64,000 nt of DNA from Escherichia coli (lineage in GTDB: Bacteria; Pseudomonadota; Gammaproteobacteria; Enterobacterales; Enterobacteriaceae), in assembly GCF_030013595.1 (NCBI RefSeq), contig NZ_CP122768.1; one strand, written 5' to 3'. Positions 59,191 to 59,309 of the stretch are shown here, piece by piece. The translations under genes were made by a program, and so were the position numbers. Within the stretch, counting starts at the first letter, position 1. Every line of letters starts with the position of its first letter. Under the pieces are notes generated by a model, which did not search any database, was not told the DNA's origin, and saw only the letters and a list, made by a program, of their open reading frames with translations.

Positions 59191-59194
59191 TGCT
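59186..59194. repeat. 9-bp target-site duplication, left copy (GACATTGCT); contains the arnB start codon on the minus strand
   Basis: Identical 9-mer immediately flanking both IS10 ends. Confidence 0.95.
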
Positions 59195-59217
59195 CTGATG
59201 AATCCCCTAATGATTTT
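59195..59217. repeat. IS10 outside-end terminal inverted repeat
   Basis: CTGATGAATCCCCTAATGATTTT; imperfect inverse match to the inside end. Confidence 0.9.
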
Positions 59218-59240
59218 GGTAAAAATCATTAAGTTAAGGT

Positions 59241-59309
59241 GGATACACATCTTGTCATATGATCAAATGGTTTCGCGAAAAATCAATAATCAGACAACAA
59301 GATGTGCGA
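59241..59309 (-). ncRNA. IS10 RNA-OUT antisense RNA (about 69 nt, from pOUT), coordinates inferred from the canonical IS10 map
   Basis: In canonical IS10, RNA-OUT starts at element bp 115 and runs toward the outside end, overlapping the 5' end of the transposase mRNA; positions mapped onto the element at 59195. Confidence 0.5.

Follow-up and report, generated by a model that had tools for sequence, protein, structure and literature searches.

IS10 inserted across the start codon of arnB in Escherichia coli: displaced native signals, probable low-level expression from pOUT, and an in-frame open extension whose first ATG lies in the RNA-OUT stem

The window analysed here (the whole stretch of 64,000 nucleotides from Escherichia coli contig NZ_CP122768.1) carries an IS10 element at the start codon of arnB. 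The reading that we favour, with a probability of roughly 0.6, is that a canonical IS10 moved into the arnB start region recently and in this strain alone, after which the arn operon is expressed at a low level, uncoupled from PmrA, by way of the outward promoter pOUT and the native AUG, with a hybrid protein formed at most in traces. The insertion is an ordinary IS10 allele and belongs to a long-known class in which pOUT faces the downstream gene. Through the arn operon lipid A is modified with L-Ara4N, and chromosomal resistance to polymyxin and colistin rests on this operon. With arnB severed from its PmrA-controlled promoter and its ribosome-binding site, the L-Ara4N trait will change in this strain, by loss or by low constitutive expression; the change is relevant as the nearest relatives of the strain are pig faecal isolates. 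Coordinates of all features are given in Table 1.

Table 1 Features at the IS10/arnB locus, in window coordinates. Duplex, free energy of pairing with the anti-Shine-Dalgarno sequence; opening, cost of unfolding positions -18..+12 around the start codon.
Feature	Position	Strand	Details
IS10 (ISVsa5/IS10R-like)	59195..60523	+	outside end 59195 faces arnB, inside end 60523; terminal repeats
IS10 transposase, intact, 402 aa	59302..60510	+	ORF; NF033591 IS4 family transposase, E 4e-121; ATG at IS10 nt 108
Target-site duplication, arnB-proximal copy	59186..59194		GACATTGCT on +, AGCAATGTC on -; holds arnB ATG 59190-59188
Target-site duplication, promoter-proximal copy	60524..60532		ATG 60528-60526 now reads AUG-UCC-UGA into IS10 inside end
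arnB, coding sequence intact	58051..59190	-	379 aa (MSEFLPF...) plus stop, as in RefSeq relatives
20-codon in-frame extension	59191..59250	-	56 nt of IS10 outside end + 4-nt AGCA; ATGs 59250-59248 and 59229-59227
RNA-OUT antisense RNA, pOUT product	59240..59309	-	Rfam RF00240, 98.8 bits, E 6e-21
Second hairpin, IS10 outside end	59206..59233	-	12-bp A/U-rich stem, loop UACC; buries ATG 59229 and first bases of AGGGG
IS10-borne Shine-Dalgarno-like AGGGG	59204..59208	-	about 12 nt upstream of native arnB AUG; duplex -6.4 kcal/mol
Candidate start, ATG 59250	59248..59250	-	pairing probability 1.0; duplex +0.5 kcal/mol; opening 13 kcal/mol
Candidate start, ATG 59229	59227..59229	-	pairing probability 0.99-1.0; duplex -0.3 kcal/mol; opening 14 kcal/mol
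Candidate start, native AUG 59190	59188..59190	-	pairing probability 0.18-0.73; duplex -6.4 kcal/mol, spacing about 12 nt; opening 8.5 kcal/mol
Stranded native arnB initiation region	60520..60546	-	upstream ATG 60546, Shine-Dalgarno 60541-60535, duplicated ATG 60528
PmrA/BasR-box-like direct repeat CTTAAG-N5-GTTAAT	60627..60643	-	sequence read; IS10 now separates repeat from arnB

The element measures 1329 bp and is bounded by imperfect terminal inverted repeats (CTGATGAATCCCCTAATGATTT and CTGAGAGATCCCCTCATAATTT), which were located at both ends with none expected by chance; across its full length it is 100% identical to copies on many enterobacterial plasmids, so nothing in the element is specific to arnB. 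On either side of it stands one copy of a perfect 9-bp direct repeat (GACATTGCT on the plus strand), the two being 1338 bp apart; on the arnB strand the duplicated target is AGCAATGTC, to be read as AGCA-ATG-TC, with the arnB start codon inside it. Terminal repeats, 9-bp duplication, transposase and RNA-OUT are all those of a canonical IS10; the one departure concerns target preference. Compared with the consensus NGCTNAGCN, taken as quoted in PMC2744996 and a preference, not a requirement, AGCAATGTC agrees at three of the six specified positions, so the target is a non-preferred one and no hotspot. The initial annotation had described a 5-bp spacer between IS10 and arnB; since IS10 ends at 59195, this spacer is 4 nt long (AGCA, 59194-59191) and, together with the arnB ATG, is part of the target-site duplication.

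Removal in silico of IS10 and one copy of the repeat restored an exact 863-bp match to E. coli strain 7/2. The possibility of an assembly artefact was rejected, since the 9-bp duplication is perfect and the empty site is recovered exactly in two other genomes, both of which argue for a real transposition. In a set of 5,426 complete E. coli genomes neither junction of the insertion is spanned by any entry, and the arnB site is uninterrupted in 5,410 of the 5,415 complete genomes that have the region; the junction 34-mer has no exact match in GTDB representative genomes and none in JGI metagenomes. HCP5S3_I2 and LCP30S3_I5, both isolated from pig faeces in the UK, are 100.0% identical to the window over positions 40000-59194 (19 kb), and by this identity the strain of the window is a member of their lineage. 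HCP5S3_I2 (NZ_CM149870.1) has the empty site and, beyond IS10, differs by a single SNP in 2.5 kb (window position 61787, C vs T, nudI region); with so close a relative uninterrupted, the insertion is recent and strain-specific.

The operon arnB-arnC-arnA-arnD-arnT is intact, and one copy of the arnB ATG is still attached to it, directly behind the IS10 outside end. In the RefSeq annotation of strain 7/2 arnB likewise encodes 379 aa and begins at the same ATG (59190-59188). The displacement of the native ribosome-binding site, already pointed out in the initial annotation, is borne out: the Shine-Dalgarno sequence GGAAGGA now lies 1338 bp upstream of arnB (60541-60535), and the PmrA-type promoter region and the second ATG copy have been stranded by IS10 at the same distance. 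What remains there is a dead end of eight or two codons, encoding only MAEGKAMS or MS before a stop that comes from the CTGA of the IS10 inside end. The direct repeat further upstream is taken here as a putative PmrA/BasR box on the consensus YTTAAK-N5-YTTAAK. This repeat and the divergent gene ais (60836-61438, plus strand) are untouched by the insertion.

In the uninterrupted gene, initiation at an in-frame ATG (60546-60544, minus strand) that precedes the annotated arnB start by 18 nt would yield a protein beginning MAEGKAMSEF. Salmonella ArnB was crystallised (1mdo, 4oca) with the corresponding longer N-terminus; the shorter one is given by RefSeq and NCBIfam. This alternative native start is disfavoured, as RefSeq, the NCBIfam profile and a crude estimate of ribosome-binding-site strength all favour MSEF; were the longer form real, IS10 would lie within codon 8-9 and the same conclusion would hold.

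pOUT, in the outside end, points at arnB: RNA-OUT shares the minus strand with arnB and lies 50 nt from it. pOUT is directed outward into neighbouring DNA (PMC2744996), and in an evolved E. coli an IS10 with pOUT facing otsB brought about RpoS-independent expression of otsBA (PMC2744996); further cases of activation of adjacent genes by IS10 or Tn10 (acrEF, his, ilv) are cited in PMC4574204 and PMC11481808. A simple sigma-70 consensus scan did not flag pOUT, so its activity here rests on published work with an identical sequence. A simple scan of the minus strand gave no intrinsic-terminator-like site, either between pOUT and arnB or within IS10. Two further outward promoters, pIII and OUTIIp, have been reported close to the inside end, at IS10 nt 1000-1230 (PMC11481808); they face ais, away from arnB, and are therefore irrelevant to the hybrid reading frame. 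That inside end now points toward ais from a distance of about 310 bp.

The Rfam model RF00240 matches the minus strand over its full length (1-70 of 70; gathering score 41), which sets RNA-OUT at 59309-59240. The initial annotation had put the RNA-OUT start at about 59309 and the first ATG of the extension inside the region transcribed from pOUT, and both statements stand. The RNA-OUT stem extends over 59307-59245. Its arms form an inverted repeat (59246-59263 and 59289-59306); the 5' one runs antisense to the start of the transposase gene, and ATG 59250-59248 sits in the 3' one. The predicted fold of the transcript from +1 (59309) consists of the RNA-OUT stem-loop, then the second hairpin (59233-59206), then loose structure around the native AUG. 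Lying between RNA-OUT and the tip of the element, the second hairpin has 10 of its 12 bp in a perfect inverted repeat; it is followed by no U-run and is hence not terminator-like. Transcription from pOUT yields chiefly RNA-OUT, a stable and abundant RNA of 69 nt with its 3' end at IS10 nt 47 (PMC5006887). This position corresponds to window 59241, 7 nt past ATG 59250, so only read-through molecules could encode any protein.

Three AUGs are thus candidates for initiation on such read-through RNA, namely the two in the IS10 end and the native one (Table 1). A Shine-Dalgarno sequence at functional spacing is lacking for both ATG 59250 and ATG 59229, and neither is accessible, the former being held in the RNA-OUT stem and the latter in the second hairpin. 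Their duplex energies of +0.5 and -0.3 kcal/mol stand against -5.7 kcal/mol for the wild-type arnB AUG. Initiation was estimated with a simplified calculation in the manner of a ribosome-binding-site calculator, with a folding window of 70 nt (-35..+35), and the values serve for ranking only: relative to the wild-type arnB AUG they are about 0.27 for the native AUG in its IS10 context, 0.04 for ATG 59250 and 0.0003 for ATG 59229. With the opening cost of the full transcript, relative initiation falls to about 0.05 of wild type. The 70-nt window cuts off the RNA-OUT 5' arm, so that the value of 0.04 for ATG 59250 is optimistic; in this short window ATG 59250 is only about 7-fold below the native AUG, and the ranking therefore depends on formation of the RNA-OUT stem in vivo. 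By this modelling the native AUG 59190 appears to have the least unfavourable context of the three. As AGGGG is poorly spaced (about 12 nt) and lies partly in the base of the second hairpin, initiation at the native AUG may be negligible too.

Taken together, these observations suggest the following course of events. The insertion has severed the operon from its own ribosome-binding site and from the promoter that depends on PmrA; beyond this, most transcription of arnB would come from read-through that starts at the constitutive pOUT and needs no PmrA. Within this read-through RNA, AUG 59250 would be locked in the RNA-OUT stem and AUG 59229 in the 12-bp hairpin, both without a Shine-Dalgarno sequence, so the synthesis of any ArnB would begin at AUG 59190, the native one, which the IS10-borne AGGGG would assist weakly. 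The net effect would be low arn expression uncoupled from PmrA, with hybrid protein at most in traces.

Among the alternatives, the one that survives best is a null allele. IS10 would then be polar: pOUT RNA would mostly end as RNA-OUT, the read-through would go untranslated for want of a usable ribosome-binding site, Rho would terminate transcription within arnB, and the arn operon would be silent, with loss of the L-Ara4N modification. The displacement of the native Shine-Dalgarno sequence and promoter by 1338 bp speaks for this, as do the reported end of RNA-OUT at IS10 nt 47 (PMC5006887) and the poor contexts of all three AUGs, whose relative initiation is at most about 0.27 with local folding and about 0.05 with the opening cost of the full transcript. 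Such poor initiation contexts, combined with untranslated arnB RNA that invites Rho, make a null allele quite possible, if on balance unlikely. It is opposed by the published strength of pOUT read-through, which sufficed for a selectable phenotype (PMC2744996), and by the scan, which gave no terminator-like site between pOUT and arnB. The genes from arnB to arnT are also still intact, although this would be expected anyway after a very recent insertion.

A more far-reaching proposal, which we put forward tentatively and regard as doubtful, is that the IS10 outside end acts as a portable expression signal, in which pOUT, and AGGGG as a surrogate Shine-Dalgarno sequence for the arnB AUG kept by the target duplication, would together give PmrA-independent, constitutive L-Ara4N modification and an altered susceptibility to polymyxin and colistin; a minor amount of hybrid ArnB could accompany this.

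Within IS10, the 12 nt at 59692-59703 form a perfect inverted repeat with the 12 nt at the junction (59187-59198), which cover the arnB AUG. On the minus strand the internal copy reads ACAUUGCUCUGA (59703-59692) and is perfectly complementary to the 12 nt over the AUG, with a chance expectation of about 0.07 by our own rough estimate. In a minus-strand RNA that crosses IS10 the two repeats could pair and mask the arnB AUG; RNA initiated at pOUT has no such upstream partner.

Long untranslated RNA is a good substrate for Rho. That PmrA-regulated read-through from the native promoter, across the whole of IS10 and antisense to the transposase, drives arnB at a reduced level with its regulation kept is very improbable, for while the scan gave no intrinsic-terminator-like site on the minus strand of IS10, and the promoter region with its PmrA-box-like repeat survives intact further upstream, such transcripts would comprise about 1.3 kb of untranslated, Rho-prone RNA after a mini-ORF of 2 or 8 codons, would carry ACAUUGCUCUGA complementary to the 12 nt over the arnB AUG, and would form the same hairpins over AUG 59250 and AUG 59229.

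It remains to consider significant production of an extended ArnB, of 399 aa or 392 aa, by translation of the pOUT mRNA from ATG 59250 or ATG 59229. The geometry on which the initial annotation based its hybrid protein is correct: the ORF list contains an ORF of 399 aa (58051..59250, minus strand), reading of the sequence agrees that the arnB frame stays open for 56 bp into IS10 up to ATG 59250-59248, and the predicted 20-residue extension has the peptide and coordinates given for it. On the minus strand the junction reads ...GACAAG ATG TGT ATC CAC CTT AAC TTA ATG ATT TTT ACC AAA ATC ATT AGG GGA TTC ATC AG/A GCA ATG TCA GAA TTT TTG CCT TTT..., where the slash marks the end of IS10. Upstream, TGA 59265-59263 closes the frame, and the first start codon to follow is ATG 59250; the second in-frame ATG (59229-59227), missed by the earlier reader, is Met8 of the extension. 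The 399-aa ORF scores 738.7 bits against the NCBIfam ArnB equivalog NF008658 (cut-off 631), and profile positions 1-378 align to its residues 21-398; as the profile begins at residue 21, the 20 extra residues fall outside the ArnB family. A short N-terminal addition would be compatible with a folded enzyme, since Salmonella ArnB has been crystallised from constructs that begin 6 residues ahead of MS(D/E)FLPF (1mdo, 4oca).

What speaks against it is the setting of the start codons. Ribosomes occasionally use AUGs without a Shine-Dalgarno sequence; here both IS10 ATGs are without one and are paired at a probability of about 1.0 in stable hairpins. ATG 59250, which the initial annotation had offered with reserve as a possible start, is not supported as a credible one, with a duplex of +0.5 kcal/mol, a pairing probability of 1.0 and the end of RNA-OUT 7 nt downstream. 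Moreover, the symmetrical build of the RNA-OUT stem accounts for its presence: the string CAAGATGTG occurs on both strands, at the transposase start (59302, plus) and mirrored in the RNA-OUT 3' arm (59250, minus), so that the ATG (IS10 nt 56-54) exists because the 3' arm mirrors the transposase start, and both peptides begin Met-Cys for the same reason. The exact 399-aa hybrid has no record among 153 billion public gene calls. Literature searches gave no report of translation starting within the IS10 outside end, and nothing pertinent on IS10-derived fusions or start codons, or on IS10 linked to arnB in such a manner. Although the frame is open and both ATGs lie in sequence transcribed from pOUT, significant synthesis of the extended protein thus has very little likelihood; the hybrid is an improbable product and the least likely outcome, and in itself it would matter little.

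The extended ORF is probably an artefact of ORF calling, a by-product of the antisense-RNA hairpin of IS10. One of the three outward frames across the IS10 end is open, the other two being stopped at 59228 and 59209, so about a third of IS10 insertions in this orientation will create the same extension. When the terminal 71 nt were shuffled by mononucleotide, 15% of the shuffled sequences had some in-frame, stop-free ATG and 1.9% had one at least 60 nt upstream. Under a longest-ORF rule, as applied by the ORF lister used here and by such gene callers as adopt it, an extended protein would be called from the ATG of the RNA-OUT stem, and the lesson for annotation is that the same ORF is to be expected from roughly one in three such insertions. 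The useful points of the case are the duplication that holds the start codon and the recognition of an apparent "start codon" as part of the RNA-OUT stem.

The favoured reading of low-level expression from pOUT has its closest parallel in the activation of otsBA and similar cases, which involve the same element with its outside end (pOUT/RNA-OUT) toward a downstream operon, and in which a regulated native promoter is replaced by a constitutive IS promoter (PMC2744996). In otsBA, IS10 lies at +12/+13 and the translation start at +56, so that the native ribosome-binding site is kept (PMC2744996); here, in contrast, the target duplication overlaps the arnB start codon and the native Shine-Dalgarno sequence is lost, arnB being preceded only by the structured IS10 end. 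RNA-OUT (RF00240) is the canonical RNA without any difference, and the ATG of the extension re-reads its 3' stem arm. The expression of AdeS from ISAba1 Pout in Acinetobacter baumannii is similar in having an outward IS promoter, a 5' end altered by the IS and a non-native N-terminus (PMC3498117). The AdeS product is, however, truncated, and its production and phenotype were shown experimentally (PMC3498117), whereas the extended ArnB is a prediction, disfavoured by RNA structure and the missing Shine-Dalgarno sequence.

An independent insertion in the ribosome-binding region of arnB was found in another natural isolate, E. coli MB06232 from seawater (NZ_CM129885.1), in which an IS1A (2288-3010 of the locus) ends 9 nt upstream of the arnB ATG. 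As in the present strain, the PmrA-type promoter has been removed and the arnB coding sequence is intact. Unlike IS10, the IS1 of MB06232 cuts inside the Shine-Dalgarno sequence and leaves GGAAAAGCA-ATG, and the annotation there contains no extended ORF. At its far end IS1A directly adjoins yfaZ, ais and nudI being missing.
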